Origin: Escherichia coli
GTDB lineage: Bacteria > Pseudomonadota > Gammaproteobacteria > Enterobacterales > Enterobacteriaceae
Length of the DNA stretch: 64,000 nucleotides
Direction: 5' to 3' (one strand)
Assembly: GCF_046105845.1 (NCBI RefSeq)
Contig: NZ_CP151004.1
The notes beneath the pieces are model-generated. The model was given only the letters and a program-made list of their open reading frames with translations. It was not told the origin of the DNA and did no database searches. The position numbers were made by a program, and so were the translations under genes. Positions 6,026 through 59,874 of the stretch are shown piece by piece; position 1 is the stretch's first letter; each line of letters starts with the position of its first letter.

Positions 6026-6787
6026 TTACCGCCACATCGCGTGTTTATCGCGATAGCAATCGACCCACATCGCCGTCGCACCACAAACGGCAACGGGCAT
6101 GATGAACAGATTAAGCAGAGGGATCATCGTAAACAGGCTGGTTAAAGCACCAAACTGCATATTGGTGATTTTGCGTGTGCGCAGGGCGGTGCGCATCTCT
6201 TTAAACGGCACTTTGTGGTTATCGAAGGGGTAATCGCAATACTGGATGGCTAACATCCAGGCGCTAAACAGGAACCACAGTACCGGCGCGACGGTTTGCC
6301 CAATACCAGGGATGAAGTAAAGAATTAGCAATACAATTGCGCGCGGCAGATACCAGGCAAATTTTTGCCATTCGCGTTTCATGATTCGCGGCACATCTTT
6401 CATGATACCGAAAATCCCGGTATCTGGCGGTGTAGCGCCAGTCAATCGTGCTTCCAGTTGTTCAGCCAATAAACCATTGAACGGAGCGGCAATCCAGTTA
6501 GCAATCGTTGAGAAGAAATAGCCAAACACTAACAGCACAGAGATGACAGCCAGAGGCCACAACAGATAGCTCAGCCATTGTAACCAGTCCGGAACATAAC
6601 TCATGAGAGTCGGGATCCAGACATCGAGTTGCGTAAAGAGCCACCAGAATGCGCCCCCCATCAACAAAATATTGACCAGCAGCGGTAAAATAACGAAACG
6701 CCGAATCCCAGGTTGCGAGACGAGCTTCCAGCCTTGCGCAAAATAGTAAAAACCGCTGCGTGGGGCAGATGTGAATGATGAAACCAT
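6026..6787 (-). CDS. cysZ: Sulfate transporter CysZ
   Basis: 253-aa multi-pass membrane ORF recognised as CysZ; synteny next to cysK. Confidence 0.9.
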
Positions 6788-7016
6788 AATCAGGATGAGC
6801 TCCTTTTGACCAATCCCAGGAAAATTCTGCGTATTTTACCGGGTAATTGCGCAATGGACAGTTAGGATATGTTCGAAAAAACAGCAAAAAGCACGATTTC
6901 ATCTATCTTTGTGCTGTGAAAGTTAATAGTGCACTTGCACTTGAGGTAATCGGCAAATACTCTTAGTGAGTAAATGTTTGCCGTGGTGGCAAGGTGTTAG
7001 AACAACAGAGAATATA

Positions 7017-8015
7017 ATGATGCAGGATTTGCGTCTGATATTAATCATTGTTGGCGCGATCGCCATAATCGCTTTACTGGTACATGGTTTCTGGACCAGC
7101 CGTAAAGAACGATCTTCTATGTTCCGCGATCGGCCATTAAAACGAATGAAGTCAAAACGTGACGACGATTCTTATGACGAGGATGTCGAAGATGATGAGG
7201 GCGTTGGTGAGGTTCGTGTTCACCGCGTGAATCATGCCCCGGCTAACGCCCAGGAGCATGAGGCTGCTCGTCCGTCGCCGCAACACCAGTACCAACCGCC
7301 TTATGCGTCTGCGCAGCCGCGTCAACCGGTCCAGCAGCCGCCTGAAGCGCAAGTACCGCCGCAACATGCTCCGCGTCCAGCGCAGCCGGTGCAGCAACCC
7401 GTGCAGCAGCCTGCCTATCAGCCGCAGCCTGAACAGCCGTTGCAGCAGCCAGTTTCGCCACAGGTCGCATCAGCGCCACAGCCAGTGCATTCAGCACCGC
7501 AACCGGCACAACAGGCTTTCCAGCCTGCAGAGCCTGTAGCGGCACCACAGCCTGAGCCTGTAGCGGAACCGGCTCCAGTTATGGATAAACCGAAGCGCAA
7601 AGAAGCGGTGATTATCATGAACGTCGCGGCGCATCACGGTAGCGAGCTAAACGGTGAACTGCTTCTTAACAGCATTCAACAAGCGGGCTTCATTTTTGGC
7701 GATATGAATATTTACCATCGTCATCTTAGCCCGGATGGCAGCGGCCCGGCGTTATTCAGCCTGGCGAATATGGTGAAACCGGGAACCTTTGATCCTGAAA
7801 TGAAGGATTTCACTACTCCGGGTGTCACTATCTTTATGCAGGTACCGTCTTACGGTGACGAGCTGCAGAACTTCAAGCTGATGCTGCAATCTGCGCAGCA
7901 TATTGCCGATGAAGTGGGCGGTGTCGTGCTTGACGATCAGCGCCGTATGATGACTCCGCAGAAATTGCGCGAGTACCAGGACATCATCCGCGAAGTCAAA
8001 GACGCCAACGCCTGA
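7017..8015 (+). CDS. zipA: Cell division protein ZipA (start taken at ATG ATG CAG, 51 nt inside the track ORF)
   Basis: N-terminal TM helix [26 protein letters not shown], charged region, long P/Q-rich linker and C-terminal FtsZ-binding domain. Confidence 0.9.
7270..7590 (+). repeat. Low-complexity Pro/Gln-rich coding repeats (ZipA flexible linker)
   Basis: Repeated cag-ccg-gtg-cag-cag-cc motifs encoding PQPVQQP-type units. Confidence 0.5.
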
Positions 8016-8076
8016 TACACTTAAGGCAAATTAACTCCTCTTCGAACCCCCGCTTGTCGGGGGTTTTTAGCATTGA

Positions 8077-10101
<2,025 letters not shown>

Positions 10102-10102
10102 G

Positions 10103-10321
10103 ATGGAAAAAGAGCAGCTGATTGAAATAGCCAATACGATAATGCCGTTTGGCAAATACAAAGGGCGTCGCTTAATCGACCTGCCGGAGGAGTATCTTCT
10201 GTGGTTTGCCCGCAAAGATGAGTTCCCGGCAGGGAAGCTCGGTGAGCTAATGCAAATCACGCTGCTGATTAAAACTGAGGGGCTGACGCAACTGGTCCAG
10301 CCCCTGAAGCGTCCTCTTTAA
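10103..10321 (+). CDS. ypeB: Small protein YpeB (DUF3820); start taken at MEKEQLIEIANT, 2 nt after the ligA stop
   Basis: 72-aa ORF immediately downstream of ligA, as in K-12. Confidence 0.7.
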   Translation: MEKEQLIEIANTIMPFGKYKGRRLIDLPEEYLLWFARKDEFPAGKLGELMQITLLIKTEGLTQLVQPLKRPL

Positions 10322-11316
10322 GCTTTATTGGCGCGGCTTTCCTGCTGCGCCTGTAACTGTTCGGTCTGGTGTTTGTATCGACGCGCCAGCACCGCACAGA
10401 CCATCAATTGGATCTGATGGAAAATCATCAGAGGCAGCACCATCATACCGATCACCGATGTGGGGAAAAGAATGTTTGCCATCGGGATGCCATTTGCCAG
10501 ACTCTTTTTCGAACCACAAAAGACGATAGTAATTTCATCTGCCTTATTGAAGCCCAGTCGGCGTGCCATAAAGACGTTAACTACAATCACGATAGCCAGA
10601 AGAACGCAGCTGACCACCACGATAAACAGCAATGATCCCCAGCCAACTTTATGCCAGATACCATTAACAACGGCTTCGCTGAACGCTGTATAAACCACCA
10701 ATAGAATGGACGTCTGGTCAGTTTTCGCAATCCATTTTTTATTGCGCGACACCCAGTCACCAATCCACGGCCGGGAAAGATGCCCCAACACAAACGGCAG
10801 CAGCAGTTGCAGCATAATTTTACCGACCTGCTCAAGGCTGCCCCCTGCACCGTGAACATTCATCACCAGACCAACCAGCAATGGTGAAAGGAAAATCCCC
10901 AGCAGGCTGGATGCTGACGCAGAACAAACCGCCGCCGCGACGTTACCGCCCGCCATTGACGTGAAGGCGATTGCAGACTGCACGGTAGCGGGGAGAATGC
11001 ACAAGTAGAGAAAACCGGAGTAGAGCATCGGGTCGACATTTACCGGTTTCCACCAGGCAAACAGCACGCCCAGAATCGGAAACAGCACGAAGGTGCTGCA
11101 CATTACCCACAAATGCAGTCGCCAGTGCCCACCGCCAGCAATAATCGCCTCACGCGACAACTTCGCGCCGTGCATAAAAAACAGCAGGGCAATCGCTGCG
11201 GTGGTCAGATTTTCAAAGAAGGGGACGAAATCGCCTCTGGCCGGAAAGAAAGAGGCCAGCAACACCACCGTGATCAGGGTTAAGGTGAAAGGATCGAGGA
11301 TACGAAAAAGTTTCAT
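10318..11316 (-). CDS. yfeH: Bile acid:sodium symporter (BASS) family inner membrane transporter
   Basis: 332-aa polytopic membrane ORF recognised as YfeH; 3' end overlaps convergent ypeB by 4 nt. Confidence 0.8.
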   Translation of the reverse strand: MKLFRILDPFTLTLITVVLLASFFPARGDFVPFFENLTTAAIALLFFMHGAKLSREAIIAGGGHWRLHLWVMCSTFVLFPILGVLFAWWKPVNVDPMLYSGFLYLCILPATVQSAIAFTSMAGGNVAAAVCSASASSLLGIFLSPLLVGLVMNVHGAGGSLEQVGKIMLQLLLPFVLGHLSRPWIGDWVSRNKKWIAKTDQTSILLVVYTAFSEAVVNGIWHKVGWGSLLFIVVVSCVLLAIVIVVNVFMARRLGFNKADEITIVFCGSKKSLANGIPMANILFPTSVIGMMVLPLMIFHQIQLMVCAVLARRYKHQTEQLQAQQESRANKA

Positions 11317-53573: not shown

Positions 53574-53792
53574 TTAGATGATAAATGACAGCAGGAATGT
53601 GCCCGCCAGAGCGACGACTGAAGCGATAAATGTCGCTGTCGTATAGTATTTAAATGTTTCATTGAGCGTAGCGCCGCAATATTGCTTCACCAGCCAGAAA
53701 AGCGAGTCTGTAACGATCGTGCAGCCAATCGCACCTGAACCGATAGCAATCGCAATAATTTCCGGGCTGATGTCGGGATACAGCGGCAGCAC
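53574..53792 (-). pseudogene. dsdX: 3'-terminal remnant of the D-serine permease gene dsdX (GntP family); 5' portion and dsdC replaced by the csc island
   Basis: 72-aa ORF of purely membrane-like sequence 18 bp upstream of dsdA, where intact dsdX sits in K-12; far too short for a GntP permease. Confidence 0.7.
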
Positions 53793-54034
53793 AATGATCC
53801 ATATTTATATTTTCTTCTCCAGGTTGGCGATGCCAGTTGGCATGTTTTACCTACTTGCCTATATGGTTACTCGTTGGCGAGAACAGAGGCGGAATTGGGC
53901 ACAATTGTCCGGGAATTATTGTTATTTTTTATTGTATTGCCGTGTCGGGTGATAGGGCGTTGAGAATATCGTTGGATCTCGCCAGTGACGTCTGTTTCTG
54001 CTACAGTGCCCGTTTTACGGCAAACGGCTTGGGT

Positions 54035-55030
54035 ATGGCTTCATTAAAGGATGTCGCACGCCTGGCGGGAGTGTCGATGATGACAGTCTCCCGGGTGATG
54101 CATAATGCAGAATCTGTGCGTCCTGCAACGCGTGACCGCGTATTGCAGGCAATCCAGACCCTGAATTATGTTCCTGATCTTTCCGCCCGTAAGATGCGCG
54201 CTCAAGGACGTAAGCCGTCGACTCTCGCCGTGCTGGCGCAGGACACTGCTACCACTCCTTTCTCTGTTGATATTCTGCTTGCCATTGAGCAAACCGCCAG
54301 CGAGTTCGGCTGGAATAGTTTTTTAATCAATATTTTTTCTGAAGATGACGCTGCCCGCGCGGCACGTCAGCTGCTTGCCCACCGTCCGGATGGCATTATC
54401 TATACTACAATGGGGCTGCGACATATCACGCTGCCTGAGTCTCTGTATGGTGAAAATATTGTATTGGCGAACTGTGTGGCGGATGACCCAGCGTTACCCA
54501 GTTATATCCCTGATGATTACACTGCACAATATGAATCAACACAGCATTTGCTCGCGGCGGGCTATCGTCAACCGTTATGCTTCTGGCTACCGGAAAGTGC
54601 GTTGGCAACAGGGTATCGTCGGCAGGGATTTGAGCAGGCCTGGCGTGATGCTGGACGAGATCTGGCTGAGGTGAAACAATTTCACATGGCAACAGGTGAT
54701 GATCACTACACCGATCTCGCAAGTTTACTCAATGACCACTTCAAATCTGGCAAACCAGATTTTGATGTTCTGATATGTGGTAACGATCGCGCAGCCTTTG
54801 TCGCTTATCAGGTTCTCCTGGCGAAGGGGGTACGTATCCCGCAGGATGTCGCCGTAATGGGCTTTGATAATCTGGTTGGCGTCGGGCATCTGTTTTTACC
54901 GCCGCTGACCACAATTCAGCTTCCACATGACATTATCGGGCGGGAAGCTGCATTGCATATTATTGAAGGTCGTGAAGGGGGAAGAGTGACGCGGATCCCT
55001 TGCCCGCTGTTGATCCGTTGTTCCACCTGA
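54035..55030 (+). CDS. cscR: LacI-family sucrose operon repressor (start taken at MASLKDVARLAGVS)
   Basis: N-terminal LacI-type HTH (LKDVARLAGVSMMTVSRVMHN) plus periplasmic-binding-like sugar domain; convergent with cscA. Confidence 0.85.
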   Translation: MASLKDVARLAGVSMMTVSRVMHNAESVRPATRDRVLQAIQTLNYVPDLSARKMRAQGRKPSTLAVLAQDTATTPFSVDILLAIEQTASEFGWNSFLINIFSEDDAARAARQLLAHRPDGIIYTTMGLRHITLPESLYGENIVLANCVADDPALPSYIPDDYTAQYESTQHLLAAGYRQPLCFWLPESALATGYRRQGFEQAWRDAGRDLAEVKQFHMATGDDHYTDLASLLNDHFKSGKPDFDVLICGNDRAAFVAYQVLLAKGVRIPQDVAVMGFDNLVGVGHLFLPPLTTIQLPHDIIGREAALHIIEGREGGRVTRIPCPLLIRCST

Positions 55031-55037
55031 TATTATG

Positions 55038-56471
55038 TTAACCCAGTTGCCAGAGTGCTCCATGTTGCAGCACAGCCACTCCGTGGGAGGCATAGAGCGA
55101 CAGTTCCCGTTCTTCTGGCTGCGGATAGATTCGGCTACTCATCACCGTTTCCCCGTCGTTAATAAATACTTCCACGGATGATGTATCGATAAATATCCTT
55201 AGGGCGAGCGTGTCACCCTGCGGGAGGGGAATACTACGGTAGCCGTCTAAATTCTCGTGTGGGTAATATCGCCACAAAACAAGTCGCTCAGATTGGTTAT
55301 CAATATACAGCCGCATTCCAGTGCCGAGCTGTAATCCGTAATGTTCGGCATCACTGTTCTTCAGCGCCCACTGCAACTGAATCTCAACTGCTTGCGCGTT
55401 TTCCTGCAAAACATATTTATTGCTGATTGTGCGGGGAGAGATAGATTGATGCTGCTGGCGTAACGACTCAGCTTCGTGTACCGGGCGTTGTAGGAGTTTG
55501 CCATTGCTCTCTGATAGCTCGCGCGCCAGCGTCATGCAGCCTGCCCAGCCTTCACGTTTTGAGGGCATTGGCGATTCCCACATATCCATCCAGCCGATAA
55601 CAATACGCCGACCATCCTTCGCTACAAAGCTTTGTGGTGCATAAAAGTCATGCCCGTTATCAAGTTCAGTAAAATGCCCGGATTGTGCAAAAAGTCGTCC
55701 AGGCGACCAAATTCCGGGTATTACGCCACTTTGAAAGCGATTTCGATAACTGTATCCCTCGGCATTCATTCCCTGCGGGGAAAACATCAGATAATGCTGA
55801 TCGCCAAGGCTGAAAAAGTCCGGACATTCCCACATATAGCTTTCACCCGCATCAGCGTGGGCCAGTACGCGATCGAAAGTCCATTCACGCAATGAACTGC
55901 CGCGATAAAGCAGGATCTGCCCCGTGTTGCCTGGGTCTTTCGCCCCGACTACCATCCACCATGTGTCGGCTTCACGCCACACTTTAGGATCGCGGAAGTG
56001 CATGATGCCTTCTGGTGGAGTGAGGATCACACCCTGTTTCTCGAAATGAATACCATCCCGACTGGTAGCCAGACATTGTACTTCGCGAATTGCATCGTCA
56101 TTACCTGCACCATCGAGCCAGACGTGTCCGGTGTAGATAAGTGAGAGGACACCATTGTCATCGACAGCACTACCTGAAAAACACCCGTCTTTGTCATTCT
56201 CGTCTCCTGGCGCTAGCGCAATAGGCTCATGCTGCCAGTGGATCATATCGTCGCTGGTGGCATGTCCCCAGTGCATTGGCCCCCAGTGTTCGCTCATCGG
56301 GTGATGTTGATAAAACGCGTGATAACGATCGTTAAACCAGATCAGGCCGTTTGGATCGTTCATCCACCCGGCAGGAGGCGCGAGGTGAAAATGGGGATAG
56401 AAAGTGTTACCTCGGCGCTCGTGAAGTTTTGCTAGTGCGTTTTGCGCCGCATGTAATCGAGATTGCGTCAT
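55038..56471 (-). CDS. cscA: Sucrose-6-phosphate hydrolase / invertase (glycoside hydrolase family 32)
   Basis: GH32 motifs WMNDPNGL, FRDP and WECPD in the translation. Confidence 0.9.
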   Translation of the reverse strand: MTQSRLHAAQNALAKLHERRGNTFYPHFHLAPPAGWMNDPNGLIWFNDRYHAFYQHHPMSEHWGPMHWGHATSDDMIHWQHEPIALAPGDENDKDGCFSGSAVDDNGVLSLIYTGHVWLDGAGNDDAIREVQCLATSRDGIHFEKQGVILTPPEGIMHFRDPKVWREADTWWMVVGAKDPGNTGQILLYRGSSLREWTFDRVLAHADAGESYMWECPDFFSLGDQHYLMFSPQGMNAEGYSYRNRFQSGVIPGIWSPGRLFAQSGHFTELDNGHDFYAPQSFVAKDGRRIVIGWMDMWESPMPSKREGWAGCMTLARELSESNGKLLQRPVHEAESLRQQHQSISPRTISNKYVLQENAQAVEIQLQWALKNSDAEHYGLQLGTGMRLYIDNQSERLVLWRYYPHENLDGYRSIPLPQGDTLALRIFIDTSSVEVFINDGETVMSSRIYPQPEERELSLYASHGVAVLQHGALWQLG

Positions 56472-56504
56472 TTTTATCATCCTGGTTAAGCAAACTTGGT
56501 GAAT

Positions 56505-56517
56505 TGTTAACGTTAAC
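56505..56517. promoter_or_regulatory. Candidate CscR operator O1 (palindrome TGTTAACGTTAAC) upstream of cscA
   Basis: Self-complementary GTTAACGTTAAC core with central CG, typical of LacI-family operators. Confidence 0.5.
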
Positions 56518-56568
56518 CTTTATAAAAATAAAGTCCCTTGCTTTCATAAATGCGATGAATATCACAAA

Positions 56569-56581
56569 TGTTAACGTTAAC
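56569..56581. promoter_or_regulatory. Candidate CscR operator O2 (second exact copy of TGTTAACGTTAAC) upstream of cscK
   Basis: Identical 13-mer 64 bp from O1 within the divergent cscA/cscK control region. Confidence 0.5.
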
Positions 56582-56686
56582 TATGACGTTTTGTGATCGA
56601 ATATGCATGTTTTAGTAAATCCATGACGATTTTGCGAAAAAGAGGTTTATCACTATGCGTAAGTCAGATGAATTTAAGGGAAAAAA

Positions 56687-57610
56687 ATGTCAGCCAAAGT
56701 ATGGGTTTTAGGGGATGCGGTCGTAGATCTCTTGCCAGAATCAGACGGGCGGCTACTGCCTTGTCCTGGCGGTGCGCCAGCTAACGTTGCGGTGGGAATC
56801 GCCAGATTAGGCGGAATAAGTGGGTTTATAGGTCGGGTGGGGGATGATCCTTTTGGTGCGTTAATGCAAAGAACGCTGCTAACTGAGGGTGTCGATATCA
56901 CGTATCTGAAGCAAGATGAATGGCACCGGACATCCACGGTGCTTGTCGATCTGAACGATCAAGGAGAACGTTCATTTACGTTTATGGTCCGCCCCAGTGC
57001 CGATCTTTTTTTAGAGACGACAGACTTGCCCTGCTGGCGACATGGCGAATGGTTACATCTCTGTTCAATTGCGTTGTCTGCCGAGCCTTCGCGTACCAGC
57101 GCATTTACAGCGATGACGGCGATCCGGCATGCCGGAGGTTTTGTCAGCTTCGATCCCAATATTCGTGAAGATCTATGGCAAGACGAGCATTTGCTCCGCT
57201 TGTGTTTGCGGCAGGCGCTACAACTGGCGGATGTCGTCAAGCTCTCGGAAGAAGAATGGCGACTTATCAGTGGAAAAACACAGAACGATCGGGATATATG
57301 CGCCCTGGCAAAAGAGTATGAGATCGCCATGCTGTTGGTGACTAAAGGTGCAGAAGGGGTGGTGGTCTGTTATCGAGGACAAGTTCACCATTTTGCTGGA
57401 ATGTCTGTGAATTGTGTCGATAGCACGGGGGCGGGAGATGCGTTCGTTGCCGGGTTACTCACAGGTCTGTCCTCTACGGGATTATCTACAGATGAAAGAG
57501 AAATGCGACAAATTATCGATCTCGCTCAACGTTGCGGAGCGCTTGCAGTAACAGCGAAAGGGGCAATGACAGCGCTGCCATGTCGACAAGAACTGGAAAG
57601 TGAGAAGTAA
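56687..57610 (+). CDS. cscK: Fructokinase (PfkB/ribokinase family)
   Basis: 307-aa ORF with PfkB signatures (GGAPANVAVGIARLGG and DSTGAGDAFVAGLL). Confidence 0.9.
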   Translation: MSAKVWVLGDAVVDLLPESDGRLLPCPGGAPANVAVGIARLGGISGFIGRVGDDPFGALMQRTLLTEGVDITYLKQDEWHRTSTVLVDLNDQGERSFTFMVRPSADLFLETTDLPCWRHGEWLHLCSIALSAEPSRTSAFTAMTAIRHAGGFVSFDPNIREDLWQDEHLLRLCLRQALQLADVVKLSEEEWRLISGKTQNDRDICALAKEYEIAMLLVTKGAEGVVVCYRGQVHHFAGMSVNCVDSTGAGDAFVAGLLTGLSSTGLSTDEREMRQIIDLAQRCGALAVTAKGAMTALPCRQELESEK

Positions 57611-57671
57611 ACGGCGAGGCCGCTCTTATCTCTAAATAGGACATGAATTTTTTAACGACAGGCAGGTAATT

Positions 57672-58919
57672 ATGGCACTGAATATTCCATTCAGAAATGC
57701 GTACTATCGTTTTGCATCCAGTTACTCATTTCTCTTTTTTATTTCCTGGTCGCTGTGGTGGTCGTTATACGCTATTTGGCTGAAAGGACATCTAGGATTA
57801 ACAGGGACTGAATTAGGTACACTTTATTCGGTCAACCAGTTTACCAGCATTCTATTTATGATGTTCTACGGCATCGTTCAGGATAAACTCGGTCTGAAGA
57901 AACCGCTCATCTGGTGTATGAGTTTCATTCTGGTCTTGACCGGACCGTTTATGATTTACGTTTATGAACCGTTACTGCAAAGCAATTTTTCTGTAGGTCT
58001 AATTCTGGGGGCGCTCTTTTTTGGCCTGGGGTATCTGGCGGGATGCGGTTTGCTTGACAGCTTCACTGAAAAAATGGCGCGAAATTTTCATTTCGAATAT
58101 GGAACAGCGCGCGCCTGGGGATCTTTTGGCTATGCTATTGGCGCGTTCTTTGCCGGTATATTTTTTAGTATCAGTCCCCATATCAACTTCTGGTTGGTCT
58201 CGCTATTTGGCGCTGTATTTATGATGATCAACATGCGTTTTAAAGATAAGGATCACCAGTGCATAGCGGCGGATGCGGGAGGGGTAAAAAAAGAGGATTT
58301 TATCGCAGTTTTCAAGGATCGAAACTTCTGGGTTTTTGTCATATTTATTGTGGGGACGTGGTCTTTCTATAACATTTTTGATCAACAACTCTTTCCTGTC
58401 TTTTATGCAGGTTTATTCGAATCACACGATGTAGGAACGCGCCTGTATGGTTATCTCAACTCATTCCAGGTGGTACTCGAAGCGCTGTGCATGGCGATTA
58501 TTCCTTTCTTTGTGAATCGGGTAGGGCCAAAAAATGCATTACTTATCGGTGTTGTGATTATGGCGTTGCGTATCCTTTCCTGCGCGCTGTTCGTTAACCC
58601 CTGGATTATTTCATTAGTGAAGCTGTTACATGCCATTGAGGTTCCACTTTGTGTCATATCCGTCTTCAAATACAGCGTGGCAAACTTTGATAAGCGCCTG
58701 TCGTCGACGATCTTTCTGATTGGTTTTCAAATTGCCAGTTCGCTTGGGATTGTGCTGCTTTCAACGCCGACTGGGATACTCTTTGACCACGCAGGCTACC
58801 AGACAGTTTTCTTCGCAATTTCGGGTATTGTCTGCCTGATGTTGCTATTTGGCATTTTCTTCTTGAGTAAAAAACGCGAGCAAATAGTTATGGAAACGCC
58901 TGTACCTTCAGCAATATAG
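57672..58919 (+). CDS. cscB: Sucrose:H+ symporter (LacY-like oligosaccharide:H+ symporter, MFS)
   Basis: 415-aa 12-TM MFS ORF downstream of cscK. Confidence 0.85.
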   Translation: MALNIPFRNAYYRFASSYSFLFFISWSLWWSLYAIWLKGHLGLTGTELGTLYSVNQFTSILFMMFYGIVQDKLGLKKPLIWCMSFILVLTGPFMIYVYEPLLQSNFSVGLILGALFFGLGYLAGCGLLDSFTEKMARNFHFEYGTARAWGSFGYAIGAFFAGIFFSISPHINFWLVSLFGAVFMMINMRFKDKDHQCIAADAGGVKKEDFIAVFKDRNFWVFVIFIVGTWSFYNIFDQQLFPVFYAGLFESHDVGTRLYGYLNSFQVVLEALCMAIIPFFVNRVGPKNALLIGVVIMALRILSCALFVNPWIISLVKLLHAIEVPLCVISVFKYSVANFDKRLSSTIFLIGFQIASSLGIVLLSTPTGILFDHAGYQTVFFAISGIVCLMLLFGIFFLSKKREQIVMETPVPSAI

Positions 58920-59360
58920 ACGTAAACTTTTTCCGGTTGTTGTCGATATCTCCATATCCCTCAACCGGAAAATAGTAATACAAAAATGCTTAGCCCAACT
59001 AATAATCACCTAATCCAAACGCCTCATTCATGTTCTGGTACAGTCGCTCAAATGTACTCCGGATACGCGGTTCGCTGATTTCCAGGACATTGTCGTCATT
59101 CAGCGACCTGTCCCGAGTATCACGGGCCTGCGAATTCATCAAGGAATGCATTGCAGAGTGAAGTATCGAGTCACGCCATATTTCGCTATCAGGATTCTGT
59201 ATGATGGTTACATCGCCCGGCCCAGGGCTGTTTAGTCATCAGCGCTTTCTGACAGTGCTGAGATTTCAACCTGTTGCAGTAAAAATGAGTAGATATAGGG
59301 CAAGTGTGCTGCCAAACCCATCTTTTACGGGGTGAAGGTAGATATTGTTAGAAGGGTATC

Positions 59361-59375
59361 TGGTGTCCCCTGCAG
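59361..59375 (-). other. Prophage attachment-site core (attR): 15-nt copy of the 3' end of tRNA-Arg argW
   Basis: Minus strand reads CTGCAGGGGACACCA, identical to the 3' terminus of argW as I recall it; directly flanks torI as at the K-12 KplE1 attR. Confidence 0.6.
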
Positions 59376-59448
59376 ACATCTACTTGACGCGGCAGGGGAT
59401 TGATTGGAATGGTGTTTTTTGGATGTGAGAAATATTTTACCCGCTATT

Positions 59449-59649
59449 TTACCCATTGGCGCGGCTTAAGAGCTTATTTTTGAATTCACAATGGTCACGA
59501 TATAACCATCTTGCTCGCCCGTGGATAACTTTAGCTTTTGGCAGGTCGCCGGACTTAATCCGGTCATAGATGAAGGTTTTACCGAAGCCAGTATCGGCCA
59601 TGATGAATTTCAAATCAACCAGTGAATCAGGTTGTAGTTCGTGTTGCAT
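59449..59649 (-). CDS. torI: Excisionase / recombination directionality factor TorI (start taken at MQHELQPDSL)
   Basis: 66-aa translation MQHELQPDSLVDLKFIMADTGFGKTFIYDRIKSGDLPKAKVIHGRARWLYRDHCEFKNKLLSRANG recognised as TorI; winged-helix Xis-like. Confidence 0.8.
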   Translation of the reverse strand: MQHELQPDSLVDLKFIMADTGFGKTFIYDRIKSGDLPKAKVIHGRARWLYRDHCEFKNKLLSRANG

Positions 59650-59668
59650 GAGTGCTATCTCCAAATAG

Positions 59669-59684
59669 GGAATCGAACCTGCAA
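59669..59684 (-). other. 16-nt sequence identical to the argW T-arm segment immediately preceding the att core, separated from the core by torI
   Basis: Minus strand TTGCAGGTTCGATTCC; with the 59361-59375 core it reconstitutes the last 30 nt of argW. Confidence 0.45.
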
Positions 59685-59706
59685 ATCAGGCAATAAAAAA
59701 CCGCCA

Positions 59707-59874
59707 TCAGGCGGCTTGATGTTCTTTCAGTTCTTCAATTCGAATATTGGTTACGTCTGCATGTGCTATCTGCGCCCATATCATCCAGTGGTCATAGCAG
59801 TCGTTGATGTTCTCTGCTTCGATAACTCTGTTGAATGGTTCTCCATTCCATTCACCTGTGACTCGGAAGTGCAT
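59707..59874 (-). CDS. Small prophage ORF (55 aa), hypothetical
   Basis: ATG-initiated ORF MHFRVTGEWNGEPFNRVIEAENINDCYDHWMIWAQIAHADVTNIRIEELKEHQAA followed on the minus strand by a GC hairpin and T-run. Confidence 0.35.
   Translation of the reverse strand: MHFRVTGEWNGEPFNRVIEAENINDCYDHWMIWAQIAHADVTNIRIEELKEHQAA

Follow-up and report, generated by a model that had tools for sequence, protein, structure and literature searches.

The argW-dsdCXA region of Escherichia coli is variable, and in its csc form cscRAKB reportedly replaces dsdC and part of dsdX (Jahreis et al. 2002; Moritz & Welch 2006, J Clin Microbiol 44:4038). On the prophage side, the closest described arrangement is the attR of CPS-53/KplE1 in K-12, which reads torI-pawZ-dsdC. 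Full-length DUF4942 genes (e.g. WP_044325567.1 and WP_001280481.1), which belong to the same Pfam family as the relic described below, are found in integrated islands; two paralogue genes of 281 codons are the last gene of CP4-44/CP4-57-type islands, in which the preceding order is antirestriction, RadC-like, DUF987, YeeU/CbeA, CbtA, DUF5983 and DUF957. Such paralogues, 72–75% identical in a distant blastn search of E. coli genomes, are annotated as full-length DUF4942 proteins. The csc/dsd polymorphism of the argW-dsdCXA region is well documented (PMC11251922, PMC3032704). The spacer between cscB and argW is not described in these two papers, and automatic annotation by RefSeq is the only source in which the DUF4942 relic is known.

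The stretch of E. coli DNA analysed here (64 000 nt; the window) carries the csc form of the region, dsdA-dsdX'-cscR-cscA-cscK-cscB-...-argW. Between the cscB stop codon at 58919 and the argW/att core from 59361 lies a gap of ~440 bp (58920–59360), which an earlier note, made from the letters alone, had described as a noncoding junction holding a gene remnant. The gap very probably contains the decaying relic of a DUF4942 gene, from a mobile-element family, situated beside the csc cassette.

Reading frames of the cscB–argW interval

The csc genes nearest the interval are cscA (55038–56480, minus strand), cscK (56687–57610, plus strand) and cscB (57672–58919, plus strand), a 415-residue reading frame for sucrose permease and the last gene of the cassette. 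In two annotated loci (L001 and L002), cscB is labelled an MFS/oligosaccharide transporter beside cscA, cscK and cscR. The longest start-to-stop reading frames in 58920–59360 encode 50 (58999–59151, minus strand), 44 and 43 residues, in agreement with the earlier statement that none reaches 60. On the minus strand, one frame stays open over 78 codons (59232 to a TAG at 58999–59001); about 75 codons had been noted before, with exactly the translation found here. The first in-frame ATG yields only 50 residues, and the bases that precede it, TTCACTCTGCA, are not purine-rich and include no Shine–Dalgarno sequence, which bears out the remark that the frame has no good start. A consensus scan of 58700–59800 gave no promoter-like sites, and no Rfam family was found in the interval.

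The DUF4942 relic

The 78-codon translation matches the Pfam family DUF4942 (PF13708) with an E value of 1.5e-9 and a score of 38.3 bits against a cutoff of 25; the minus-strand frame is therefore not open by chance. The match covers only positions 5–62 of the 190 in the profile. In tblastn searches with the 281-residue homologues, the frame aligned to residues 76–151 with 50–51% identity (E = 1e-19) and a second piece, in another frame, aligned to residues 38–70. Nucleotide alignment to two full-length DUF4942 genes (L005:6600–7445 and L006:6603–7445) gave 73% identity over 292 nt. The putative pseudogene delimited by these three comparisons occupies 59310–59008 on the minus strand and consists of codons 33–66 (59310–59208) and codons 85–151 (59207–59008; the nucleotide alignment itself covers codons 85–149, 59207–59016), with a frameshifting deletion of 55 nt between the two pieces (gene nt 199–253) and in-frame stops in the upstream piece. 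Both gene ends are missing. A complete DUF4942 domain in an intact frame is thus not present: only codons 33–151 of 281 remain, interrupted by the deletion and the stops. The 5' truncation and the 55 nt deletion account for the absent start. On the csc-facing side ~130 C-terminal codons are gone, and the 3' half of the gene was not found elsewhere in the window, including the left csc junction; argW is on the 5' side. Between 59311–59360 and the DUF4942 N-terminus, a possible `TIS' match was judged to be due to chance, as it does not appear in the tblastn output.

As judged from these alignments, the relic is the 5'-proximal and middle part of a DUF4942 gene, and the TAG at 58999–59001 is not its natural stop but a fortuitous one at the junction. 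Compared with the DUF4942 genes of CP4-type islands, it retains ~40% of the gene, frameshifted and with stops. It is an ordinary pseudogene, already present in the automatic RefSeq annotation, where it is mis-called as a CDS. Reading frames called at this position by RefSeq and other sources range from 44 to 85 residues across strains, with CDSs of 34–68 residues in L002, L007 and L008; the RefSeq entries named `DUF4942 domain-containing protein' of 34–85 residues, present in thousands of genomes, should be marked as pseudogenes.

The csc cassette and its right border

When one genome per species was scanned for CscB relatives, a csc cassette was found in Citrobacter amalonaticus (L012 4320–9319 and L016 4323–9318; CscB 90–92% identical), located between ytfR-ytfT-yjfF and an MCP gene with fbp-mpl, with no tRNA gene and no DUF4942 gene at the locus. 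CscB at ~62% identity also occurs in Rosenbergiella species. DNA homology between the window and the C. amalonaticus loci extends from 53994 to 58987 at 80–83% identity. The comparison defines the predicted csc cassette as 53994–58987 and fixes its right border at ~58990, so that the first 70–80 nt of the interval belong to the cassette. The relic lies outside the csc DNA common to both genera, and its truncated 3' end (59008) is ~10–20 nt from the border; the earlier proposal that the remnant marks the edge of the csc DNA thus holds, with the cassette homology ending at 58987 and ~20 nt (58988–59007) lying between it and the relic.

The cassette part of the cscB 3' flank spans 58920–58998 (plus strand), on the basis of the Citrobacter homology to 58987 and of the ETEC locus L003 described below, which retains it up to 58996/7. 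The L003 breakpoint was rejected as independent evidence for the csc border, since L003 is a deletion derivative of a lysogen. Just 3' of the cscB stop, a hairpin (58926–58975, plus strand) has a perfect 11 bp stem, TTTTCCGGTTG/CAACCGGAAAA, and a minimum free energy of -19.5 kcal/mol (z = -4.1). E. coli, a divergent Escherichia and C. amalonaticus all have an identical stem, whereas the loop varies. This hairpin is probably a 3' stabilizer or terminator of the cscB mRNA, although no T-run follows. At the other end of the cassette, a segment of ~200 nt (53793–53993), which runs from the truncated dsdX to the left border as defined by Citrobacter, is specific to the csc haplotype; the left junction (53780–54000) has no other homologue in E. 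coli genomes, and ~105 nt of this segment are missing from L011. The two cassette borders share only chance repeats of 8–9 nt.

The argW attachment site

The att core (59361–59376, minus strand, 15–16 nt; TGGTGTCCCCTGCAG) is the 3' end of the tRNA-Arg gene argW and the attR of the prophage, equivalent to pawZ of K-12. It matches nt 61–75 of argW at 15 of 15 positions and is the single occurrence of the core in the 64 kb window. Beyond it lies torI (59449–59649, minus strand), which encodes an excisionase/recombination directionality factor and ends a P22-like prophage with a KplE1 module; torI with its flanks is 97% identical in nucleotide sequence to K-12 CPS-53 and is annotated in L001. The prophage genes beyond torI are early genes of lambdoid/P22-like type, and this prophage DNA has also been deposited as a Lederbergvirus record. 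From 59361 onward, the succession of argW core and torI arm is that of the KplE1/CPS-53 attR, with 329 of 339 nt identical to K-12.

The likeness to K-12 is confined to the identical att core and the 97% identical torI arm. K-12 homology starts exactly at the core (59361 inward, 97%), and the two haplotypes diverge immediately after the CCA end of the tRNA. Towards the chromosome, dsdC follows in K-12 after ~95 bp of unrelated DNA, whereas the window has a 50 nt segment, the DUF4942 relic and csc. The 50 nt segment (59311–59360), which separates the relic from the argW 3' end, is highly variable and specific to the csc haplotype; it has no homology in K-12 and, beyond orthologous copies, none in other E. 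coli genomes.

Distribution of the relic

In prophage-free csc-positive strains, the order is dsdA-dsdX'-cscR-cscA-cscK-cscB-relic-argW-yfdC, with a complete argW starting at the core; even the most divergent copies (L007 and L008) share this arrangement. Among 5426 complete E. coli genomes, the cscB 3' end is present in 2646 (counts of cscB range from 2634 to 2646), the relic, at a coverage of at least 80%, in 2619–2624 and the K-12-type dsdC end in 2732. About 99% of the csc-positive complete genomes (~2620 of ~2640) therefore carry the relic, which shows how tightly it is linked to csc, as the earlier note had it, and essentially none of the csc-negative genomes among the 5426 does. Together, the csc and dsdC forms (2646 and 2732) cover almost all 5426 genomes, which is consistent with the reported near-exclusivity of the sucrose and D-serine loci.

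One csc-positive locus, L003 (ETEC, LR882990, 6078–8285), has no relic and reads cscB, 77 nt, ISEc46, intS', argW. Through ISEc46, an IS200/IS605 element with TnpB and TnpA, the cscB 3' flank (to 58996/7) is connected with a truncated intS that is 98% identical to that of K-12; this intS' indicates that an ISEc46-associated deletion in a lysogen gave rise to L003. The deletion removed a whole argW prophage together with the relic.

Sequence divergence of the relic

The divergence of the junction was compared with that of cscB. Relative to the window, L007 is 90.6% identical in the junction, 89.9% at third codon positions of cscB and 98.3% at first and second positions; the corresponding values for L008 are 93.4, 94.5 and 99.2%. 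In an alignment of seven strains, codon positions 1, 2 and 3 of the open frame account for 9, 12 and 10 substituted columns; an extra in-frame stop occurs in L007 and L019, and the upstream piece contains indels. The 128 nt nearest argW (59233–59360) vary in 23–24% of columns, against 13% in the open-frame part and remaining junction, and the 66 nt segment 59295–59360 varies in 23%. The high variability near argW may be due to recombination or to elements that entered and left the att site repeatedly, for which seven strains are a small sample. In L011, from a divergent Escherichia (cscB 91% identical in nucleotide sequence), the same dsdX'-csc-att locus is present with the relic shortened by further deletions. 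Divergence equal to that of cscB third positions, the even spread over codon positions and the stops and deletions all characterize the relic as evolving neutrally.

Readings of the interval

In the reading first put forward, the open frame was a 3' remnant, acquisition of csc having removed the 5' part of the gene. That it is a gene remnant stands, given the matches by Pfam, tblastn and nucleotide alignment, and its ending in a stop codon without a good start, next to csc DNA, would suit a 3' end. The fragment, however, corresponds to profile positions 5–62 of 190 and codons 33–151 of 281; the csc side is the 3' side of the gene, where its 130 C-terminal codons are gone, and the 5' side faces argW, not csc. 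The alignments to full-length genes by tblastn and at the nucleotide level refute this orientation, to which we attach next to no probability. Still less credible is that the interval is ordinary intergenic DNA conserved in K-12, which the earlier note had named as the outcome that would overturn it: K-12 homology stops at the att core, the ~95 bp before dsdC are unrelated, and in K-12-type genomes nothing but the torI/att part of the query is matched, so that the remnant is absent from K-12, as had been claimed. A functional product of the interval, be it the frame of 50–60 residues or an RNA, with a role as a micro-protein, a regulator of cscB or argW, or a part of the prophage attR, is highly improbable. 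The CDS called here by RefSeq in many genomes and the lower variability of the open-frame part would fit such a product, as would the lack of a terminator-like site on the minus strand between the relic and torI or argW, and read-through from argW or torI could produce RNA at the relic. Against it stand the even distribution of substitutions over codon positions, the extra stops in L007 and L019, the deletions in L011, an overall divergence equal to the synonymous-site proxy, and the lack of a Shine–Dalgarno sequence, promoter-like site or Rfam family; moreover, L003 lacks the whole relic yet retains csc and argW, and the attR function of KplE1 is known to map to the prophage arm and core. The interval is very probably a pseudogene relic without function. 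The relic provides no new mechanism or function and, apart from its use as a marker, matters little.

The DUF4942 gene belongs to a mobile-element family and not to the resident core genome. Its relic resembles the DUF4942 genes of CP4-type islands in its association with a tRNA gene and in its orientation, that of a final gene reading away from the tRNA/int end; 50 nt separate it from the 3' end of argW, where the haplotypes diverge. The neighbours seen in CP4-type islands (DUF957, DUF5983, cbtA/cbeA, radC-like, antirestriction and integrase genes) are all absent beside it. No integrase or CbtA/CbeA module survives in the window, and of the conserved CP4 module only the DUF4942 fragment is present there. 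In L002, L007 and L008, the DNA from argW to the relic holds no P4-type integrase, the int' of L003 being the prophage intS, and the 64 kb window has no second, directly repeated copy of the tRNA 3' end at a far border. The elements found at argW are KplE1/P22-like prophages, a recombinase-bearing element in O157:H7 and a P4-like satellite; neither of the two sampled elements beside dsdC (the P4-like satellite and the upaE-ipuAB form) ends in DUF4942. No full-length gene with more than ~55% protein identity to the relic was found in protein sets of 5.8e9 and 1.84e9 sequences, in plasmids, in phages or in the 5426 E. coli genomes: a word-indexed search of the 5.8e9 proteins returned fragments only, an exhaustive search of the 1.84e9 representatives gave a best full-length match of 53% identity on a 1.7 kb contig, and tblastn of plasmids and phages gave only orthologous copies or matches of ~50%. 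The lineage of the relic thus has no sampled intact member, which indicates that the parent element is unsampled.

On balance we lean towards derivation of the relic from an element integrated at argW, given the divergence of the K-12 and csc haplotypes at the CCA end, the codirectionality of relic and argW, which is how the final gene of a tRNA-int-...-DUF4942 island should be oriented, the acceptance of several integrative elements by argW and the gene family itself. A mobile element with a DUF4942 gene would have occupied the argW attachment site, and its argW-proximal part, up to about codon 33 of the gene, would then have been deleted. The 3' half of the gene and everything as far as mid-dsdX would have been lost where the 5 kb csc cassette (53994–~58990) begins. 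Whether the csc insertion itself caused the loss of the 3' end, immediately beside the cassette border, we hold to be evenly balanced, and a resident island struck by csc has about even chances too. Against an island already present before csc stands that the relic was seen in no csc-negative genome. The argW-relic-cscBKAR-dsdX' haplotype would have arisen once and then passed through csc-positive Escherichia by inheritance or homologous recombination, with prophages such as that of the window integrating later at the adjacent argW core. The relic would be useful as a neutral marker of a csc-at-argW haplotype that is single in origin and old. Joint arrival, with csc as cargo of a foreign DUF4942 element or fused to it and a single entry at argW, is the less likely course. 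It would explain why the relic occurs essentially only with csc, why no close full-length parent is found in E. coli or the other sequences searched and why divergence from the K-12 haplotype begins exactly at the tRNA end, as in integrase-mediated entry; the left csc junction (53780–54000) is likewise csc-specific DNA. The C. amalonaticus cassette, however, stands alone at another locus without DUF4942, so the two form no obligatory unit, DUF4942 is terminal in known CP4-type islands with nothing downstream, and the dsdX' side has no integrase or att repeat. We only tentatively entertain the related idea that the relic is all that remains of a CP4-type island which integrated at argW and either delivered the csc regulon or was its landing pad. 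If so, the well-known sucrose-versus-D-serine switch of E. coli would have originated when an integrase acted at the tRNA site, with deletions coming afterwards, and the relic would be a neutral clock dating this event before the split of E. coli and at least one cryptic Escherichia lineage.

Other observations at argW

A csc-negative strain, ZH063 (L024 1–9000), carries a P4-like satellite at the argW att site beside dsdC, with genes for a DUF927 primase, ogr/delta, an Icd-like protein and capsid size. Within the window's prophage, a perfect 16 nt copy of argW nt 46–61, TTGCAGGTTCGATTCC, lies at 59669–59684 (minus strand), flanked by a terminator hairpin (59698–59717) and the ribosome-binding site of torI. 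The copy, which K-12 CPS-53 also has, is separated from the true att core by 293 nt; it could have been left behind by a longer att site of earlier date or by torI having been acquired as a module. Outside the interval, a match to the Salmonella sRNA STnc130 in Rfam (59599–59726, plus strand) overlaps the torI start and the upstream terminator and is below threshold, at 28 bits against a gathering cutoff of 55 (E = 0.078).

Four GenBank `complete genome' records of Lederbergvirus phages (ON470594.1, L022; ON470589; ON470608; ON470622; vB_EcoP-683R2 and others) include cscR, cscA, cscK, cscB and the relic, in ON470594.1 at 6097–11201. This part of the records is ~5.7 kb of host chromosome beyond attR. 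Some of the CDSs there are labelled `A-kinase anchor protein 5'.
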